A stretch of DNA of 32,000 nucleotides from Candidatus Hermodarchaeota archaeon (GCA_048886185.1 JBHLKY010000001.1:60001-92000), one strand, 5' to 3'; positions 10,465 to 25,445 are shown, numbered from the stretch's first letter. Numbers and translations are program-made. Notes: generated by a model not told the origin, from the sequence alone.

Positions 10465-11820
10465 TTATTTACATTTTTTCCTAGCTATATTTGCTGCTAT
10501 CAGAATTGGATCCCAAACAGGAGCAAAGGGCGGAGCATATGAAAGATCAAGCTTCTGGATATCTTCTATTTTCATTCTTGCTGCAAGTGCTGTTGCCAAC
10601 ACATCAATTTTTTTTGCACCTAATGTACTAGGCGCTGTTATTTCAGCTCCTAGAAAAAGGTGACTTTCTGTATCAAATACAAATTGGATTGACATTTTCT
10701 TAGAGCCAGGATAGTAATGAGCAATTTCCTTACTTTCGATAGATATAGTTTGGGCATTATATCCTAGATTCTTTGCCTCTTTCTCAGTTATACCCGTCGT
10801 TGAACAATATAAATCAAGTACTTTATATATAGCTGTACCAACTACGCCTGGAAATGGAAAATCAGTTTCTCCTGAAATAACCGAACCTGCTATACGGCCT
10901 TGTTTGTTGGCAGCTGGAGCTAAAGGGAGATACACATTTTTCTTCAAAATTTGATGATAAGAAGAAGCACAATCCCCTGCAGCATAGACATCTTGAATAT
11001 TTGTTTGCATATATTCATTTGTTTTTATAGCGCCATTGGGGAGAAGATCAAGGGTGGTCTTCTTGAACATGTCTGTTGCTGGAACAACACCGATCGAAAG
11101 TTGAATAAGATTCGTTTCTATAATCTGTCCATCGTCTATGAAAACTTTTAAACGAGCATCAGAAATTGATTCGACTTTCATTACTCGCTTCTCAAGTATG
11201 ATCTTTATTCCATGCTTCTGAAGTTCTGAAGTGACATACTTTTGGCTTTCAGATCGAAAAATTAGTCGAGGTCCGATAACAGTGATTTGCTCTCCTTTTA
11301 TCCCTTGAGCAATGTATGCCTCCAACATTTCTAATCCTATATATCCACCACCTATAATCACAACAGAATCTACATGATTTTTCGCTAAGAATGATTTCAA
11401 ATATTCTGCGTGATTTAAAGTATGAACTTTGAAAATTCGAGGGTGATCAATATCTAAACATGGATCAGATTTCGCTTTGGCACCAGTTGCAATAATTAAA
11501 TAATCATATGATTTACGAAACTCCTTAGCATGCTTGAGATCCTTAACCAGAACAGATTTTGCCTCAAAATTAACTTTTATGACCTCATGGTATAAATGCA
11601 CGGGAATATTTCGATGTTCTTCTAGTTTTTCTTTCGTTAAAGTGATTAATTGATCAAGACTCTTAACCTCATTAGACACATAGTACGGTATCCCACAGGC
11701 ACCATAAGAAACATATCGGTCCTTTTCATATACATCTATTTCCCAGTCAGCATGTGTTTTGCGTATTGCACTTGCAGCACTTAAACCTGCAGGATTACCA
11801 CCAATTACTACAACCCTCAT
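10465..11820 (-). CDS. CoA-disulfide reductase / NADH oxidase family flavoprotein
   Basis: GGNPAG FAD motif, single-Cys active site SYGACGIPY, GGGYIGLE, YAAGDC, LAPAANKQGR and LSYAPPFAPVWDP. Confidence 0.9.
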   Translation of the reverse strand: MRVVVIGGNPAGLSAASAIRKTHADWEIDVYEKDRYVSYGACGIPYYVSNEVKSLDQLITLTKEKLEEHRNIPVHLYHEVIKVNFEAKSVLVKDLKHAKEFRKSYDYLIIATGAKAKSDPCLDIDHPRIFKVHTLNHAEYLKSFLAKNHVDSVVIIGGGYIGLEMLEAYIAQGIKGEQITVIGPRLIFRSESQKYVTSELQKHGIKIILEKRVMKVESISDARLKVFIDDGQIIETNLIQLSIGVVPATDMFKKTTLDLLPNGAIKTNEYMQTNIQDVYAAGDCASSYHQILKKNVYLPLAPAANKQGRIAGSVISGETDFPFPGVVGTAIYKVLDLYCSTTGITEKEAKNLGYNAQTISIESKEIAHYYPGSKKMSIQFVFDTESHLFLGAEITAPSTLGAKKIDVLATALAARMKIEDIQKLDLSYAPPFAPVWDPILIAANIARKKCK

Positions 11821-11862: not shown

Positions 11863-12846
11863 TTAGACAATTTGTCGTTTGATTTCTGAAGTTTCTTTAA
11901 TATGTTCTTGCTTCCAATAGGGATCACGGATGTAGATATATGCCCCATGAGCTGCGAGAGCTCCTTGAGCGGCTGCTAAAGTAGCTAGTTGATAGGGGGT
12001 AACAATATCTCCAGCTGCAAAAACTCCTTCAATATTTGTACGTTGAAGTTGATCCGTCTTTAGGAATTTTCCTTGAAATTCTAATCCTAAATCCTCAAAT
12101 ATCTCAGTATTTGGCTTTAACCCTACTGCAAGGATTACTTTCTCGACATTGAGTTCGATTTTTTCTCTAGTATTTATATCCTCTAAGATCGCCCCTTCTA
12201 CTTTACGTTGTCCAAGAATCTCTTTAATACTGACATTAGTCAGTATTTCGGCCATTTTTTCCTTTTTTACCAGATCTAAATTTTTTTCTGATGCTCTGAA
12301 GTCATTTCGACGGTGGGCCAAATAAATCTTCTGTGCAATGTTATTAAGATCTAAAACGGCATCGATGGCGGTATCACCACCTCCTACAACGAGTACACGA
12401 CGATTGTAAAAAATATCTGGTTCAATTACATAAGGATAAACCCCTCTGTCTTTGCTAGAAAGCTTTGCCTCCCCTGGAATTCCCAATTCATTAGGTTTCA
12501 TTCCTGTAGCTATAATAATAGATTTTGCTTGATAACTCGTTCCTTCAGAAGTTACAACATTAAGGTTCCTATGGATTTTTATAACTCGTTCTTTTATAAG
12601 ATGGACACCGTGATCTGCTGCTTGACGAACCCATTCTGAAACGAGATGTTCAGCACGAATGCGTGGTGTACCTGGGTAGTTGTAAATTTTCTTCTTGGGA
12701 TAAATAGTACTTAAAAGTCCTCCCCATGTGCCCCCCTCGAATACTGCTGTAACTAATCCTTTAAGCGAAGCAATAATTCCAGCAGAGAGTCCCGCTGGCC
12801 CACCTCCAATAACAATAACATCAAAGTTATTAGTTAATCCATTCAT
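11863..12846 (-). CDS. Thioredoxin-reductase-fold flavoprotein lacking CxxC, probably TrxR-type ferredoxin-NADP+ reductase
   Basis: GGGPAG, IYPKKKIYNYPG, IIIATG, GGGDTA, HRRNDFR (NADPH motif) and FAAGD. The CxxC position reads GVYPYVIEPD, and the protein contains no Cys. Confidence 0.8.
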   Translation of the reverse strand: MNGLTNNFDVIVIGGGPAGLSAGIIASLKGLVTAVFEGGTWGGLLSTIYPKKKIYNYPGTPRIRAEHLVSEWVRQAADHGVHLIKERVIKIHRNLNVVTSEGTSYQAKSIIIATGMKPNELGIPGEAKLSSKDRGVYPYVIEPDIFYNRRVLVVGGGDTAIDAVLDLNNIAQKIYLAHRRNDFRASEKNLDLVKKEKMAEILTNVSIKEILGQRKVEGAILEDINTREKIELNVEKVILAVGLKPNTEIFEDLGLEFQGKFLKTDQLQRTNIEGVFAAGDIVTPYQLATLAAAQGALAAHGAYIYIRDPYWKQEHIKETSEIKRQIV

Positions 12847-12883: not shown

Positions 12884-13981
12884 TCATTCTAGGTCTGATA
12901 ATGATAGTTTAATATCCATGGCATGTTCTGATAATCTTTCCTGAACATAAGTTCCCGATAATCTCCAGATATTACGAATTCTTCCATGTTTATCAATCAA
13001 GAAGGTTGTTCTTTCTGCCATTCCCGTTTCATTGTTTAAACAACCATAATTAGCTGAAATTTCTTTCTTTAGATCTGATATCAAGGGAAATGGAAGATGT
13101 AGACTATTTCTAAAAGATTGGAGATCTGAGACATCATCTACAGAAACTCCAATAACCTCTACATCAAGTTTCTTAAGTTCGTTATAGGCGTCTCGAAATC
13201 CTTCTGCTTCGATAATACATCCAGGAGTGTTTGCTTTAGGATAAAAGAATAGGGCAAGAGTTTTCTTGTTTTGAAAATCTGATAGTCTTATTGTTTCATT
13301 TTTATCTGTTTGAGCAATGAAGTTAGGAGCAAGATCACCAATTTCAAGGAAACCACTTTGCGTTTCAACTTTCTTGAGGGATTGTGTATCAGTTGCATAA
13401 ACTTCTTTAATTCTTTCCCAGAATGGTAGTTCTACATTTGTACTTAACATCATTGGTAGGCATAATGGGCAATCCTCCTCATGAGGCCTTCCAATAATAG
13501 GTGAAGCTACATGAAACCATGGATAAATGACATTTGAATGTAGTTCTTTTTCAAATGCTCGGACTTTTGGGTCGTTCAATCGTTCCCAAGGAGTTTCCTG
13601 ATATTTTTCATCTAACAACTGTGAAACACCTTTGAAAAGATTATTTATAACTTTCATTGCTTCAGTATCAACATCTCTCTCCCTGAATGCTGCACAAATA
13701 ATGTTTTCCGATCTTGTGTAATAAAATAACAGTTTTAAGGATCCAATACTCATACTTTGGACTTTTGTTTCTGATTCAGCAAACATCCCTGGCATTGTGG
13801 AGACAGCTGCTAAGAAAGCTGTTAGAAGTTCATCTTTTTTCCCTAACATCCCGCAGACATTTCCCCAACATCTCGAATAGATCGGTTGTCCTGAATCTTG
13901 ATAGATAATTAAGTATTCTAATTTAATTGTCCTGATCTGTTTCTTTCTTCTAAGAAAATTTACGATGGACCCAAGTTTCAT
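12884..13981 (-). CDS. Fusion: N-terminal longin-like domain, Cys/His-rich linker, C-terminal BCP/PrxQ peroxiredoxin
   Basis: Residues ~211-365 carry FFYPKANTPGC (PxxxTxxC), VIGVSVD, FPLISD and ERTTFLID. Residues ~20-155 show the longin beta-beta-alpha-beta-beta-beta-alpha-alpha pattern (EYLIIYQDSGQPIYSR, ELLTAFLAAVS, LKLLFYY, NIICAAF). The Prx call is strong; the longin call is by pattern only. Confidence 0.8.
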   Translation of the reverse strand: MKLGSIVNFLRRKKQIRTIKLEYLIIYQDSGQPIYSRCWGNVCGMLGKKDELLTAFLAAVSTMPGMFAESETKVQSMSIGSLKLLFYYTRSENIICAAFRERDVDTEAMKVINNLFKGVSQLLDEKYQETPWERLNDPKVRAFEKELHSNVIYPWFHVASPIIGRPHEEDCPLCLPMMLSTNVELPFWERIKEVYATDTQSLKKVETQSGFLEIGDLAPNFIAQTDKNETIRLSDFQNKKTLALFFYPKANTPGCIIEAEGFRDAYNELKKLDVEVIGVSVDDVSDLQSFRNSLHLPFPLISDLKKEISANYGCLNNETGMAERTTFLIDKHGRIRNIWRLSGTYVQERLSEHAMDIKLSLSDLE

Positions 13982-14611
13982 TTTTTCTTTACATCCTTTA
14001 AAATATGTTTATTAATATTATTAGAATCGTAATGAAGCGCTCGTTGGGGAAGTATCTTATGAACACGATTTTAAAATCATTGGCATACAAATTGGACAAT
14101 TTTCTTTATGATTATCTCCATTAAATGGTAAGGTGCGATAAAACCAAGGATGCATGACTTTCTTCAATAATTCCCTTTCAAATGAGATAACCATGGGATC
14201 ATTTAGTCGATCCCAAGGAGTTTTTTGAAAATCTTCGTCAATTAATTGTGTAATGTCTTGGAAAAGATCATTTATAACCCCCATTGTGTTTTTATTCACA
14301 TCTTCCTCTGGAAAGGCTAGGCATATGATATTTTCTGATTCTGTGTAACAGAATAACAATTTTAATGATCCAATACTTATATTCTGGACTTTTTCATTTT
14401 CAGATTCAGCAAACATCCTTGGCATAGTGGAGACAGCTGCTAAAAATGCTGTCATCAATTCATCTTTTTTTCCCAACATCCCACAAACATTCCCCCAACA
14501 CTTCGCATAGATTGGTTGTCCTGAATTTTGACAAATAATAACATATTCCAACTTAATTTGGTCAAGGTGTCTCTTTTTCTTAAAAACATCCATTAATGAA
14601 TTAATTTTCAT
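13445..14611 (-). repeat. Tandem gene duplication (13445-13981 vs 14057-14611)
   Basis: Similarity is visible at DNA level, e.g. gattcagcaaacatcc.tggcat.gtggagacagctgctaa and ttcatcttttttc occur in both copies. Confidence 0.9.
14057..14611 (-). CDS. Stand-alone longin-like protein, paralog of the N-terminal half of 12884..13981
   Basis: Hand alignment gives about 113 identities over ~180 aa to the fusion N-terminus, including the identical stretch CWGNVCGMLGKKDEL and H-x3-CPxCxPM. Confidence 0.8.
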   Translation of the reverse strand: MKINSLMDVFKKKRHLDQIKLEYVIICQNSGQPIYAKCWGNVCGMLGKKDELMTAFLAAVSTMPRMFAESENEKVQNISIGSLKLLFCYTESENIICLAFPEEDVNKNTMGVINDLFQDITQLIDEDFQKTPWDRLNDPMVISFERELLKKVMHPWFYRTLPFNGDNHKENCPICMPMILKSCS

Positions 14612-14866
14612 TTATTCATCTCTTCTATCAGAGTCCTTGAATAAAATTCTGTCCTATCTTTAATAATACATTAATTTGTTGAAATAAATCTTTTTCAATA
14701 TGAAATTCGTTATCATTCAGAAATTCATAACAAGCTAAATGATTAAGCTCATGAAGTTGCTTTAGCTATTTTAGACTAATAAAATATTGCTACAATTACA
14801 AGAGGCATACTGAAAAGGCATTTTTCGTCCCAATTTAATTTTAAGAAAAATATTAAGGTGAAAAAT

Positions 14867-15004
14867 TTGGCAATATGGGAATGTAGAATGTGTGGATACA
14901 CATACGATGACGAAGATCAAGGGGTTCCTTTTGAAGAGCTTCCTGATGATTGGATATGTCCTTGGTGTAAAGCTCCTAAGAAATACTTTGATAAGTATGA
15001 ATAA
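14867..15004 (+). CDS. rub: Rubredoxin, short 45 aa type
   Basis: Hand translation MAIWECRMCGYTYDDEDQGVPFEELPDDWICPWCKAPKKYFDKYE*, with CxxCG...FEELPDDWxCPxC. TTG start about 6 nt after AAGGTGA; in-frame GTG at 14858 is an alternative. Absent from the ORF track. Confidence 0.95.
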   Translation: MAIWECRMCGYTYDDEDQGVPFEELPDDWICPWCKAPKKYFDKYE

Positions 15005-15026
15005 AAGCTTTTTTCCTTTAGCTATT

Positions 15027-15590
15027 TCAGTTTTCATTATATTTATTATAATAAATGAACTCATGTAACAACTTGCGTTTAGGACGTTCTGCCTCATTTT
15101 TTCGTTGATGATCTTTAAAGAAGTCAGGAATTATGTTTGATTTTTTTCCAACAATAATAAGAGTAATTAAAAGCATTTCTTCAGGAATATCAAGTAGTTG
15201 TTTAACTTTTTCTGGGAAAAAACCTGCTATTGGATGAGCAACTAAACCTCTTTCAGTTAAGTATAAGATCATCAACGCTGTTGCCATTCCCGTATCAAAA
15301 AGAAAGTACTGACGGTTTTTTATTATACAGTCTAAGTCTGATTTAGAAAATACAGCAATAATTAGACTGGCAGCTTTTGCCCATGCGTTCCCATTAGTAA
15401 GTGTTTCGTCCTTTACACGAGTGAGTAATTCTTTCTCATAAATAAAAATAAACCTCCATGGCTGATTATTAGAACAAGATGGAGCTAATTGAGCTATTAG
15501 TGCAGTTTCTTCAATCAATTCTCTTGTAATCTCTACTGGTTCCAATGCCCTATAAGCTCTTCTCCTTTTAACTAAATTTTCAAAATTCAT
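15027..15590 (-). CDS. Nitroreductase family (FMN-dependent) protein
   Basis: RRRAYRA, APSCSNNQPWRF, FDTGMA, RGLVAHPIAGF and C-terminal RPKRK. GGTGA RBS upstream. Confidence 0.92.
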   Translation of the reverse strand: MNFENLVKRRRAYRALEPVEITRELIEETALIAQLAPSCSNNQPWRFIFIYEKELLTRVKDETLTNGNAWAKAASLIIAVFSKSDLDCIIKNRQYFLFDTGMATALMILYLTERGLVAHPIAGFFPEKVKQLLDIPEEMLLITLIIVGKKSNIIPDFFKDHQRKNEAERPKRKLLHEFIYYNKYNEN

Positions 15591-15782
15591 TACTTTTTCA
15601 CCATTTAAAACAGATTTCTGGTAAGTTTACAATTGTAAAAATGCTTTCAAGTATTTTTACTTAAACATTACCTCTGAAAATCGCAAAGAAGGTATTTAAG
15701 ATCTGAATAAGTTTGATAAAACATCATGAGTTAAGATAAAAAAAGGTATTTTCATTCTTTAAATCTAATAGAAGTGATAATT

Positions 15783-16286
15783 GTGGGAAAAACAGAAGAG
15801 AAACTAATGGCTGCATTTGCTGGGGAATCCCAAGCGAATAGAAAGTATCTTGCTTTTGCGAAAAAAGCGGAAAAAGAAGGTTTTAACCAAGTAGCTCGTG
15901 TATTTCGGGCTGCGGCGGCTGCAGAAACTGTACATGCACATGCACATTTACGTGTGTATGGAGGTATTAAATCTACTCTTGAAAATATTCAAGAAGCTAT
16001 TGGAGGAGAACACTATGAATTTGTTTCCATGTATCCAGAATTCATAGATATAGCTAAAGAAGAGGGTAGAAAAGCAGCAGAACGAAGTTTTGATCTAGCA
16101 AGACAGGTGGAAATCATCCATCATGAGCTTTATTCTAAAGCCTTAAAGGCGGTTGAAGAGGGAAAAGATCTGTCTGAAACATCATTGTTCGTCTGTAATG
16201 TCTGTGGTTACACCTGTGAAAATGAGATTCCAGATATTTGTCCTGTATGTGGAGCGTCTCACGAACGATTTACTGAGATTGAATAA
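15783..16286 (+). CDS. rbr: Rubrerythrin
   Basis: AFAGESQANRKYLAFA, AAAETVHA, GEHYE...MYP, EIIH and C-terminal rubredoxin-like CNVCGY...CPVCG. GTG start at 15783; the ORF track uses 15774. Confidence 0.95.
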   Translation: MGKTEEKLMAAFAGESQANRKYLAFAKKAEKEGFNQVARVFRAAAAAETVHAHAHLRVYGGIKSTLENIQEAIGGEHYEFVSMYPEFIDIAKEEGRKAAERSFDLARQVEIIHHELYSKALKAVEEGKDLSETSLFVCNVCGYTCENEIPDICPVCGASHERFTEIE

Positions 16287-17186: not shown

Positions 17187-17903
17187 TCAAATTGATTCAA
17201 TCATTTCTTTTTCTTCAATTTCATTTAATAAAAGTTCTCCTAAGTGGTAAAGAAATGATCCAAGGAAGAAGAAGGACGTAAGAACTATAAGAATGGAGAT
17301 TAGGGAAAAAAAATATGATAATTGGTTCGATATTAAGGGAGGATTACCCATTTGGGAGAGACAAGCGCTTATTGCATAACCATCAGTGACAAATCCCAAA
17401 GAAGAGGGAAAGATTGGGAAGAGGTTAGGGAGATCAGCTAATACACCAAAGAAGAAATAAAACCTTCCAGTTTCATAAAAGATTCCTGATTTCATCCGAA
17501 GCAGTGTAATAATACAAAAAATGGTAAAAATCATAACTGAAGCGGATCCAGAAAGCATTGCAATAATAGATTGCCAACAATTGGGAAATTCATGAGAACA
17601 TACACAAGCACAACAGAATGTACCTTCAGAAAAATAGCATTCTAAGTTTGGACTTAAAGCAGGTAAAAAAAGACTTATTGAAAAGAGATGTCCTAGTTCA
17701 TGGACTAGAGTAAAAGGAAGGTAAAGAAAGCTAAATATAATTGCTAGAAGTGGAGATAGTAGGGTACATATTGGAAGTGTAAATGTGAATACAATTGAGA
17801 ATAATATTTTACCTTTTTTCATGCCTGAAGATATATCATATTTGTTTTTTTGAATCATATCCATTTGCTTCATATAATAATTCCCTAAAAAGCTTACGAA
17901 CAT
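17187..17903 (-). CDS. Membrane metalloprotease, site-2 protease (M50)-like
   Basis: Hydrophobic protein with HELGH (HExxH) in a TM segment and a downstream NLFP...TDG motif. The true start is probably downstream of 17903 (e.g. MKKGKILF). Confidence 0.7.
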   Translation of the reverse strand: MFVSFLGNYYMKQMDMIQKNKYDISSGMKKGKILFSIVFTFTLPICTLLSPLLAIIFSFLYLPFTLVHELGHLFSISLFLPALSPNLECYFSEGTFCCACVCSHEFPNCWQSIIAMLSGSASVMIFTIFCIITLLRMKSGIFYETGRFYFFFGVLADLPNLFPIFPSSLGFVTDGYAISACLSQMGNPPLISNQLSYFFSLISILIVLTSFFFLGSFLYHLGELLLNEIEEKEMIESI

Positions 17904-17973
17904 CAGAACATCAACCTAATTATTTAAAATTAACAATTGTTATTTAGAATTATTAATTATAGAGGGACAACAA

Positions 17974-18516
17974 TTGACTTCTAAATTAGAAAAATACAAG
18001 TTTGATCATGTTACTCTTGGTGTACTAAGAATAGCGATGGGTTTTGTTTTTCTATGGCCGTTCTTAGATAAAATGTTTGGTTTAGGGTTTGCTACCGCTC
18101 CTGAAAACTCGTGGCTTGCGGGTGCATCTCCTACACAAGGATTTTTGCAGTTTTATGGCGTGAATCAGAATAGTCCGTTTGCTTTTCTGTTTTCTGATGT
18201 TTTAGGTAATACCTATCAATTAGTGGACATTGCATACATGGGGATGCTATTATTTGCTGGTATTGGGTTAATATCAGGGGTTCTTGTAAGATTATCGAGT
18301 ATTTCCACAATAATCTTCTTGGCATCTGTTTATCTCTCTGAGTGGATCATTGCTCCTGCTGAAGGTACAATGGTATTCAATCCCTTAATCGATGAACACA
18401 TTATCTACATTCTTGTCCTATTATTATTCATTATAGTACCAGTTGGCAATTATCTCGGATTAGGCGAAAAATGGTCAAAGCTGTCTTTTGTAGAGAGAAT
18501 TCCCATTTTGAAGTAG
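17974..18516 (+). CDS. DoxX / TQO small-subunit (DoxD) family membrane protein
   Basis: LRIAMGFVFLWPFLDKMFG, WLAGASPTQGFL, GIGLISGVLVR, NPLIDEHIIY and LGLGEKW. TTG start after GAGGG. Confidence 0.85.
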   Translation: MTSKLEKYKFDHVTLGVLRIAMGFVFLWPFLDKMFGLGFATAPENSWLAGASPTQGFLQFYGVNQNSPFAFLFSDVLGNTYQLVDIAYMGMLLFAGIGLISGVLVRLSSISTIIFLASVYLSEWIIAPAEGTMVFNPLIDEHIIYILVLLLFIIVPVGNYLGLGEKWSKLSFVERIPILK

Positions 18517-18780
18517 GGATATACCCCTCTTCATCTCCTTATTTCTAATTTTTCTATTATCGCTTTTATAAGGATAAAAAATAAAATTGTAGCACTCCTC
18601 GGGGATGTGTTCGATCAATGTAACAATTTCTCTAACATCAACTTTTTATTAAATTACTTAAACAACATATCTTTTAATCCTATGATTTCTGAAAGGCTAG
18701 GGAGGAGATTACAAATTAGAGAAGTATTTATATCCTATCGGATTCAAACAAATGCACTCCTAAGAAATATCCGATGCTGA

Positions 18781-19641
18781 ATGAAAATGAATCTTCTTGT
18801 AATCTATAATCTAATTCTTTTAACCATGATCCGAATTATAGGTTTAGGTCTTTCTATTGAATTCTTCATAAATCTCCGAAAAAAAAGATTCATAGCTCCC
18901 ATCGCAGGTTGGGGATGTTGGGTAATAGCTGGAATATTACCAATAATTGCTGATATCCTACCTTCAGAGTTTGTAACTGAAGTTCTCCTTCTGATCAATG
19001 CAATTCTAGATGTGGAAGGACTAATACTAATTTTCTTAGGAATTTTATCCTACATTCGTTTTGTACCTGGAAAAATAATGTTTCTGGTATCGTTGGTACT
19101 TATGATCTTTCCAATAGTAACCCTTACATTATTTGGTAAAGTAATGGCATTGACATTCGCGGTTGTCCTGAATTTTGCTTCATATATTGTTATATCATTA
19201 ATAATAATTTTAAAGGGAAGAGAGGTTCATGAAATTATTGGAGATGGGGCTAAATGGTTATACTTCACATTATTTACTGTAATTTGCTACTTAATTTTGT
19301 TATGCATCCTTATCTTAACAGTTGATGATTATAGCTATGGTATATATTATTCTGTTAATACTACAGCAATAATTGGTAATTATACTATTAATATTCTGCT
19401 TACCATCCTTATTATTGTGTTATCAATTCATTTTGAAAGAGGTATCGCAAATACGGATAAAAATCAGCTAAAAGATAAATATTCACACAATATTGGAAAT
19501 ATACTCCAAATAATTGTGAGTGCAGCTTCCGTAATTGAGTTAGGGGGGCATTTGGATGATTCAGAGATTTTAAATTTGGTTTTAATCCAAGATAAATGTA
19601 ATGAAGCAGGGGAATTGATAAAAGAAATCAGAGAGCTCTAA
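18781..19641 (+). CDS. Seven-TM membrane protein with C-terminal HisKA/DHp-like helical hairpin and no ATPase domain
   Basis: Seven hydrophobic segments by eye, followed by KDKYSHNIGNILQII (H-box-like). The ORF ends about 50 aa later. Confidence 0.6.
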   Translation: MKMNLLVIYNLILLTMIRIIGLGLSIEFFINLRKKRFIAPIAGWGCWVIAGILPIIADILPSEFVTEVLLLINAILDVEGLILIFLGILSYIRFVPGKIMFLVSLVLMIFPIVTLTLFGKVMALTFAVVLNFASYIVISLIIILKGREVHEIIGDGAKWLYFTLFTVICYLILLCILILTVDDYSYGIYYSVNTTAIIGNYTINILLTILIIVLSIHFERGIANTDKNQLKDKYSHNIGNILQIIVSAASVIELGGHLDDSEILNLVLIQDKCNEAGELIKEIREL

Positions 19642-24977: not shown

Positions 24978-25445
24978 TTATTCGCCAAAATCGAAATAAC
25001 TTTCTTCCACCAGCTCCCATAAATCCTTTTCAGATAAAGTTAATTTCTCTATAATCATTTTTTGAATGGTTGTTAAGAGTTTATGATGCTTTTTCTCATC
25101 GTTAAGGATCGCCCTTATGATAAGTTTTTCATTTTCGTTTTCTGTTGTGTTCAGCTTATCTTGATAGACTTCTATCGCTTGGCGTTCCAGTTCTATATGT
25201 TCAGCTATTGATTTTTTCAGTTCTTCTCCAAATTTTTCTGCTACAGAGGGAGTTGGTTTAGTATAGATACTAATCAATGCACTCAGCATACCTGCATGCT
25301 TTTTTGAGTCTAATGCAATCCCCAATATCAATTCTCGAATGAGAACATTATCTATCCCTTGAACTGCTTTTTCAGCTTTTTCAACTATTGTTTTCTCTAG
25401 AGTAATTTGATCGTTGTAGAATTCGATTCTTTCCTCTTTCCTCAT
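24978..25445 (-). CDS. Ferritin-like four-helix (di-iron) superfamily protein
   Basis: Internal two-fold repeat with LE..IALDSKKH and HIELE..ILNDEKKH; all-helical, 155 aa. Confidence 0.75.
   Translation of the reverse strand: MRKEERIEFYNDQITLEKTIVEKAEKAVQGIDNVLIRELILGIALDSKKHAGMLSALISIYTKPTPSVAEKFGEELKKSIAEHIELERQAIEVYQDKLNTTENENEKLIIRAILNDEKKHHKLLTTIQKMIIEKLTLSEKDLWELVEESYFDFGE

Follow-up and report, generated by a model that had tools for sequence, protein, structure and literature searches.

The 32,000-nucleotide stretch of a Candidatus Hermodarchaeota archaeon genome analysed here, hereafter the window (GCA_048886185.1, JBHLKY010000001.1:60001-92000), encodes on its minus strand a sedlin/synbindin-like longin domain fused to a PrxQ-type peroxiredoxin (Prx), and the fusion is both genuine and conserved. 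The gene (P0001; 12884–13981, or C1:72884-73981 on the contig) is a single unbroken open reading frame (ORF) of 365 amino acids that runs from ATG to TGA, and its architecture was delimited by Pfam, orthologue alignments and AlphaFold2 (AF2) models. A basic, possibly amphipathic N-terminal segment, conserved in the genus and modelled with a low predicted local distance difference test score (pLDDT), occupies residues 1–18 (13928–13981); it is followed by the longin core (residues 19–156; 13514–13927), by a tail and a linker helix of the form W-x3-K-x2-Y, placed from the alignments (residues 157–198; 13388–13513), and by the PrxQ/BCP domain (residues 199–365; 12887–13387), assigned by Pfam, NCBIfam and a tree. 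The first-pass annotation of this DNA had proposed such a one-frame union of a longin-like domain and a peroxiredoxin, and the 365-residue frame, Pfam, the structural models and 14 clusters of orthologues bear it out. New relative to that annotation are a four-cysteine signature found throughout the family to which the longin domain belongs and a rubredoxin gene in the same cluster.

In the C-terminal half, AhpC-TSA (PF00578) covers residues 214–337 (E 2.8e-37; 127.9 bits, where the cut-off is 26), the best NCBIfam models are those of thiol peroxidase/PrxQ, each under its equivalog cut-off, and the best solved relative is Sulfolobus solfataricus Bcp1 (3drn; residues 212–341, E 1.9e-26), a PrxQ/BCP protein that shares the PxxxTxxC motif, the arginine and membership of the thioredoxin fold family. 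P248, T252, the peroxidatic C255 (codon 13217–13219) and R324 (13010–13012), the last within AERTTF, are invariant across 13 orthologues. The PxxxTxxC motif and the catalytic arginine of ERTTF are thus located where the annotation had placed them, and the PrxQ active site is complete.

For the N-terminal domain, AF2 models built with family alignments (full-length protein, pLDDT 86.1 and predicted template modelling score (pTM) 0.68; stand-alone paralogue, described below, pLDDT 81.5 and pTM 0.76) predict a longin fold, as the annotation had suggested. DSSP assigns strands to residues 19–28, 33–38, 74–79, 82–88 and 93–100 and helices to residues 42–69, 106–126 and 138–155 of the models, and the resulting order, β-β-α-β-β-β-α-α across residues 19–156, is that of longin rather than roadblock domains. 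In an exhaustive all-against-all structure comparison with 48,161 PDB representatives the top match was synbindin (Z 12.3, root-mean-square deviation 2.6 Å, 119 residues aligned), followed by sedlin (Z 11.3), the VAMP7 longin (10.7), SRX and Sec22 (both 10.6), AP mu/sigma N-domains (about 10.4) and the Lokiarchaeal longin 8yqg (9.8); 41 chains scored Z 8 or more, and all those listed are longin or roadblock proteins. Foldseek returned 29 matches at E 1e-3 or better to the same kinds of protein, and the structure neighbours in the ESM Atlas were Asgard Fuz_longin_1 clusters and plant TRAPP sybindin/sedlin proteins. The fold call rests on predicted structures because assignment from sequence failed: the only Pfam match in residues 1–198, to Fuz_longin_1, was sub-threshold (16.3 bits against a cut-off of 26.1), as was that in the paralogue (19.4 bits), NCBIfam returned none, and the best PDB profile match, to TRAPPC2 over residues 22–138, was non-significant (E 0.34). 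A PF19036 match is precomputed for one orthologue of the paralogue. No thioredoxin, glutaredoxin or flavin family was found in residues 1–198 with Pfam or NCBIfam; the partner fused to the peroxiredoxin has a predicted longin fold, and so is neither a thioredoxin-fold nor a flavin redox domain.

A word-indexed search of 5.8 billion proteins recovered 14 clusters of fused orthologues (361–369 aa), all retaining the Prx domain and with 66–74% identity in the N-domain. The source assemblies, from NCBI, JGI, ENA and Logan, carry labels of Hodarchaeota, Heimdallarchaeota or Promethearchaeota metagenome-assembled genomes, and the stand-alone paralogue was found on the same contigs as fused orthologues. 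Single 10-kb Logan contigs from runs X1 and X4, which may represent the source sample, cross the whole stretch concerned without indels, and in an independent estuary study (X5) a 393-nt contig extends over 13327–13719, across the domain junction, gap-free and with 10 substitutions. Recurrence of the architecture in 14 clusters, together with the X5 contig across the junction, rules out the assembly artefact for which the annotation had allowed. Two more distant, Hodarchaeales-type fused forms were identified, P0051 (360 aa) and P0070 (341 aa, ‘Candidatus Hodarchaeales’); the gene upstream of P0070 does not encode a longin paralogue (hhalign probability 0.1%).

That paralogue (P0002, 184 aa; 14057–14611, minus strand) is a cysteine-rich, stand-alone longin encoded 75 nt upstream of the fusion gene on the same strand, and shares 62% identity with the fused N-domain. 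Fused and stand-alone copies come out of the N-domain tree as sister clades (100/99), one group each, and the duplication therefore predates the sampled species. P0002 is also the predicted dimer partner of the fusion protein. A complex model of residues 1–195 with P0002 gave an interface score (interaction prediction score from aligned errors, ipSAE) of 0.63 (0.61–0.64 in three runs), against 0.00 for the best control, with at least 93% of contacts common to the runs and a partner pLDDT of at least 74; the ipSAE mark is reached by 58 of 80 solved complexes and by 2 of 110 mismatched pairs, counts that are rough, as our own alignments were used. The modelled interface comprises α1 (42–70) and an antiparallel β3–β3 pairing (72–84 with 73–85). 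Helix α1 together with the edge strand β3 is the classical longin/roadblock dimer geometry, and we predict from the model that the fused N-domain pairs with P0002 via this canonical interface; the high score may in part reflect memory of, or likeness to, solved longin/roadblock dimers. Both proteins start with a conserved basic segment of low pLDDT, M-K-L/I ... F-K-R/K-K-K (13928–13981 and 14558–14611, minus strand), and many distant family members have instead a basic C-terminal tail following a W-x3-L/K-x2-Y helix. These basic termini could be peptide-binding or membrane-contact elements.

The N-domain belongs to an Asgard-wide family that no curated entry covers and whose members the databases call ‘hypothetical protein’. 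An exhaustive hidden Markov model search with the N-domain profile across 1.84 billion representatives returned 63 proteins at E 1e-3 or better, most of 175–240 aa. Within the phylum, 106 of 301 genomes contain matches to the N-domain. Matches over the full length, C-terminal segment included, were found in the family and order of the source genome, in one other family of the class and, for a further family, in 35 of its 76 genomes. Nearly every full-length member carries a signature consisting of Cx4C at the β2–α1 turn and a tail pair, C-x4-9-C-P or H-x3-C-P-x-C, after α3, and many have exactly four cysteines. In the fusion protein these are C38 (13868–13870) and C43 (13853–13855) in the longin core, which also has C96 in β5, and H167-x3-C171-P-x-C174 in the tail (13460–13483); the linker helix that follows this tail is likewise present in stand-alone members. 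CPxC is the knuckle motif of rubredoxins and zinc ribbons. Because the position of the fourth ligand shifts among subfamilies while the total stays at four, with exchange between Cys and His, we read the four cysteines as probably forming a metal site.

Two groups of relatives are of note for their surroundings. In one Asgard family (f11) the gene immediately upstream of a four-Cys longin is that of an acyl-CoA dehydrogenase, within a conserved block at 13 of 14 loci (L019:5984-10511 and 12 alike: L020–L023, L026–L030, L032, L036 and L037); the block also encodes small unknown proteins, a coiled-coil protein and an OB-fold zinc-ribbon protein of the ChsH2/DUF35 type. Outside the window, at about 29.8–30.3 kb of C1, a second longin relative, shorter at 156 aa (L005:1411-1881, minus strand), has a Cx5C only and is without the C-terminal Cys pair; its neighbours encode a rubredoxin-reductase-like flavoprotein, a winged-helix-like protein, a stand-alone peroxiredoxin and a second rubredoxin. 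Three further genomes of the genus share this longin/winged-helix/Prx neighbourhood, which is absent from other families. The data did not bear out a general association of longin-family members with redox genes: 17 stand-alone relatives had no thioredoxin reductase (TrxR)-like, CoA-disulfide reductase (CoADR), rubrerythrin or nitroreductase neighbour, and one stand-alone relative has a Prx 3.6 kb away.

The Prx half departs from typical PrxQ enzymes at the position five residues after the peroxidatic cysteine, which is Glu, Gln or Arg in all fused forms and Cys in 104 of the 117 nearest stand-alone PrxQs. Because this position is never Cys in the fused forms, the fused enzyme appears to be a 1-Cys-type PrxQ or to employ another thiol. 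Many PrxQs function as 1-Cys enzymes. The sole other Prx-domain cysteine in the genus-level proteins, C314 (13040–13042), is not kept in the distant fused forms; together with C96 and C174 it makes up a set of extra cysteines that are invariant at genus level. The Prx domains of P0051 and P0070 align end to end at 41–47% identity (their N-domains at about 25–30%), whereas for the nearest stand-alone PrxQs the alignment reaches only about 77% of the domain and at most 118 bits. A C-terminal helix is specific to the fused clade, and all fused domains form one clade (100/98) in a tree that includes, from the 5.8 billion proteins, the 60 stand-alone PrxQs closest to them. These features mark a distinct, always-fused PrxQ lineage, explained most simply by a single old fusion event. 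The N-domain tree places P0070 with another subfamily (97/93), on long branches; the Prx tree instead unites all fused forms.

On the minus strand, the paralogue and the fusion gene are followed after 37 nt by the gene for a 327-aa TrxR-like FAD/NAD(P) flavoprotein (11863–12846) and, after a further 42 nt, by that for a CoADR/NADH oxidase-like flavoprotein (10465–11820; Pfam). Divergent from this operon across a 246-nt spacer lies a gene for a 48-aa rubredoxin (14858–15004, plus strand; PF00301, E 6.5e-11), which was masked by a spurious low-complexity ORF of 108 aa (14771–15097, minus strand) and came to light in a genome-wide Pfam scan. Upstream follow genes for a nitroreductase-family protein (15027–15590, minus strand), a conserved neighbour, and for a rubrerythrin with a rubredoxin-like C-terminal domain (15774–16286, plus strand), along with a DUF547 gene, all identified with Pfam. 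The order nitroreductase, longin, longin-Prx, TrxR-like is the same in six genomes of the genus. With its rubredoxin, rubrerythrin, nitroreductase, TrxR-like and CoADR genes, the locus is an oxidative-stress island, and this setting speaks for a part in defence against oxidative stress. No RNA dataset was listed as carrying the locus. Scans for sigma-70-type promoters and terminators gave fewer matches than shuffled sequences, these models being inapplicable to archaea.

The TrxR-like protein has no cysteine at all: aligned to Methanosarcina TrxR (4zn0), its CxxC is seen to be replaced at the position of the CAIC disulfide. Since it lacks any cysteine, it cannot act as a disulfide reductase. 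Its solved homologues include the TrxR-type ferredoxin-NADP reductases 6gas and 3lzw, as well as 2zbw, which is labelled a thioredoxin reductase, and together with rubredoxin and rubrerythrin it could form a chain from NAD(P)H to peroxide. A general link with longins was also sought here, and no longin was found within 1.5 kb of orthologues from the same genus (72–77% identical) or from another family (about 50%). Two genomes of the genus, G262 (L046) and G172 (L045), have no longin-Prx gene at the locus, and a paralogue-type longin abuts the TrxR-like gene. This arrangement was considered as the ancestral state and rejected, as the tree groups that longin with the clade of stand-alone paralogues (89/76), which makes it more likely that the fusion gene was lost. 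In G262 a 31-residue remnant is all that remains of the CoADR gene.

These surroundings bear on the function proposed in the first-pass annotation, namely coupling of peroxide sensing to a longin/GTPase or membrane-associated signalling network. On this reading, the peroxide signal would pass via the longin to a small GTPase or the trafficking machinery, by a Prx-to-effector relay like that of Orp1–Yap1. The longin fold itself speaks for this proposal, as the TRAPP subunits at the head of its structural matches act on Rab GTPases; small GTPases are also numerous in the genome (about 63–66 Ras/Arf-type matches), and Asgard longin–GTPase fusions are documented (PMC10933270). The locus does not follow suit. 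The window contains no GTPase gene, the nearest on the contig being more than 120 kb away (C1:196930 and C1:249879), the identifiable neighbours are all redox or oxidative-stress genes, no GTPase is found among the annotated genes of related loci (the f11 acyl-CoA dehydrogenase loci and the surroundings of P0070), and no membrane segment was noted. The GTPase/trafficking reading is thus unsupported and we consider it very unlikely to be correct; action in trans is possible.

We favour instead, with about an even chance of being right, a cytosolic thiol peroxidase built on a longin scaffold, in which the longin domain would serve as a built-in dimerisation and thiol-relay partner and not as a GTPase regulator. 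The four cysteines would hold a metal, a structural or redox-labile zinc being favoured over iron or an iron-sulfur (Fe-S) cluster, and the metal would staple the C-terminal tail to the longin core. The fused longin would pair with the neighbouring paralogue, or with itself, through the α1/β3 interface. Hydrogen peroxide would convert C255 to a sulfenate, which, because there is no resolving Cys at the +5 position, would be resolved by a thiol outside the Prx fold, most likely one of the CPxC/Cys cluster of the attached longin pair or, alternatively, a small thiol, for instance CoA. Return to the reduced state would then fall to the NAD(P)H flavoproteins whose genes lie downstream.

Several findings weigh against this thiol-relay reading. 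The complex model does not discriminate between hetero- and homodimer. The +5 Cys is missing as well from the stand-alone sisters closest to the fused Prx clade (P0101, P0102, P0123 and P0156), so that it may have been lost before the fusion and require no substitute; coincidence of the loss with the fusion, an idea we had entertained, is weakened for the same reason. The four-Cys longins occur mainly without any Prx, in f11 beside acyl-CoA dehydrogenase, which argues that the cysteines were not invented for a peroxidase, and P0070 retains a single Cys of the CPxC pair. CoADR is present at three of eight related loci only, and Cys-free TrxR-like orthologues are also found away from longin genes.

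Some of these same observations would fit a plainer arrangement, in which the metal is structural and the longin only dimerises or localises a 1-Cys PrxQ that is recycled by CoA and CoADR or by thioredoxin, with no thiol traffic between the domains. Four-Cys longins that are widespread without Prx, sister PrxQs that likewise lack the +5 Cys, a CoADR gene in the operon of the present genome and the predicted longin dimer are all as such a scaffold would have them. We nonetheless regard it as rather unlikely, given that the fusion was retained as one clade across the deep divergence between the genus-level proteins and the distant forms, that the genus-level proteins hold C96, C174 and C314 invariant, and that CoADR is absent from five of the eight related loci.

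The character of the metal site and of the downstream flavoprotein raises a further alternative, that the four-cysteine site binds iron, as in rubredoxin, or an Fe-S cluster, and that the longins carry one electron at a time from the TrxR-like protein to the fused peroxidase or to rubrerythrin. It draws on the lack of cysteines in the flavoprotein encoded 37 nt away and on the ferredoxin-NADP reductases among its solved homologues, on the rubredoxin/zinc-ribbon character of CPxC and the proline after the last ligand cysteine, which is typical of Fe-S ligands, and on the repeated adjacency of family members to flavoproteins (TrxR-like here, rubredoxin-reductase-like beside the second longin relative and acyl-CoA dehydrogenase in f11). 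Each of these adjacencies is confined to a single genus or family, however, and may reflect shared ancestry; TrxR-like orthologues exist without a longin, and the variable third-ligand spacing and Cys/His swaps are more typical of zinc sites. Moreover, peroxiredoxins require two-electron thiol reductants, and the canonical rubredoxin of the cluster is the obvious client of the flavoprotein, which weakens the case for the longin as carrier. We judge an electron-carrying role improbable.

Beyond the thiol-relay scheme, a bolder possibility, which we put forward tentatively and hold to be doubtful yet worth stating, is that the fused Prx acts as a peroxide sensor that oxidises metal-bound cysteines of the longin heterodimer, leading to release of the metal and a switch in conformation or partners; in a variant, the four-Cys longins would be new metal-based redox carriers for flavoproteins.

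The components of this system have parallels elsewhere. Hsp33 and RsrA are zinc-thiolate redox switches, and Orp1–Yap1 and Tsa1–Pap1 are peroxiredoxin thiol relays; the resemblance to the fusion protein is a functional analogy without homology, the shared layout being a peroxidatic cysteine beside a cysteine-rich, probably metal-bound module. In comparison with PrxQ/BCP proteins such as Bcp1, the fusion protein lacks the +5 resolving Cys and has an N-terminal longin module of 198 residues and a C-terminal helix of its own. The statement in the first-pass annotation that BCP/PrxQ proteins are usually single-domain is broadly true, although BCP fusions are known: the Thermotoga maritima BCP-nitroreductase (4eo3), which is among the Prx-domain matches, also joins a Prx covalently to a second domain, presumed to serve the redox cycle of the Prx; a nitroreductase gene is, in the present locus, a separate and conserved neighbour. 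Prx-glutaredoxin hybrids such as Haemophilus PGdx are further natural Prx fusions. In 4eo3 and PGdx the partner is a flavin or thioredoxin-fold redox domain, whereas here it has a longin fold, for which no redox role is known.

Eukaryotic longins (synbindin/TRAPPC4, sedlin/TRAPPC2, VAMP7, Sec22, Ykt6, SRX and the AP/COPI sigma and zeta subunits) have the same ββ-α-βββ-α-α fold as that predicted for the fused N-domain, with Z from 12.3 to 8 over some 120–130 residues and sequence identity of 5–14%. None of the listed matches showed the four-Cys signature or the C-terminal CPxC tail, and the GTPase, SNARE or coat context in which those proteins act has no counterpart at the fusion locus. The Lokiarchaeal 8yqg comes from the same phylum and shares the fold. 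Published Asgard longin fusions have GTPase, roadblock and TRAPPC3 partners (Tran et al. 2024, PMC10933270), and the protein described here shares this tendency of Asgard longins to join other modules, but with a peroxiredoxin as the partner. Full-text literature searches (longin with peroxiredoxin; longin with cysteine and zinc in archaea) turned up no description of a longin-Prx architecture or of a four-Cys longin, in keeping with the annotation, which likewise knew of no described longin-Prx protein. Because databases label the fusion protein ‘peroxiredoxin’ and the paralogue ‘hypothetical protein’, it is invisible to annotation-based surveys.

The longin is a ‘eukaryotic signature’ fold of Asgard archaea that has so far been read almost wholly as a GTPase or trafficking regulator. 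The locus exposes a large, unannotated longin subfamily with a conserved four-Cys site, one branch of which is fused to a peroxidase within an oxygen-stress island, in a Heimdall-group, Hodarchaeales-type lineage whose aerotolerance is currently debated with regard to eukaryogenesis (bioRxiv 10.1101/2025.02.26.640444). If the cysteines prove to be a redox-active or metal centre, archaeal longin folds would have had a redox role that has not been considered, and the peroxide-sensor reading, if true, would amount to a redox-gated longin module in the archaeal order nearest eukaryotes. The fusion protein and its paralogue make up a small, soluble two-protein system that is readily expressed and tested.

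Elsewhere in the window, three successive ORFs of 238, 180 and 286 aa (17187–19641) match no Pfam family at E 0.01 or better, and some 11 kb away from the cluster there is a second rubrerythrin-family gene (155 aa; 24978–25445, minus strand; PF02915, E 4.7e-7).

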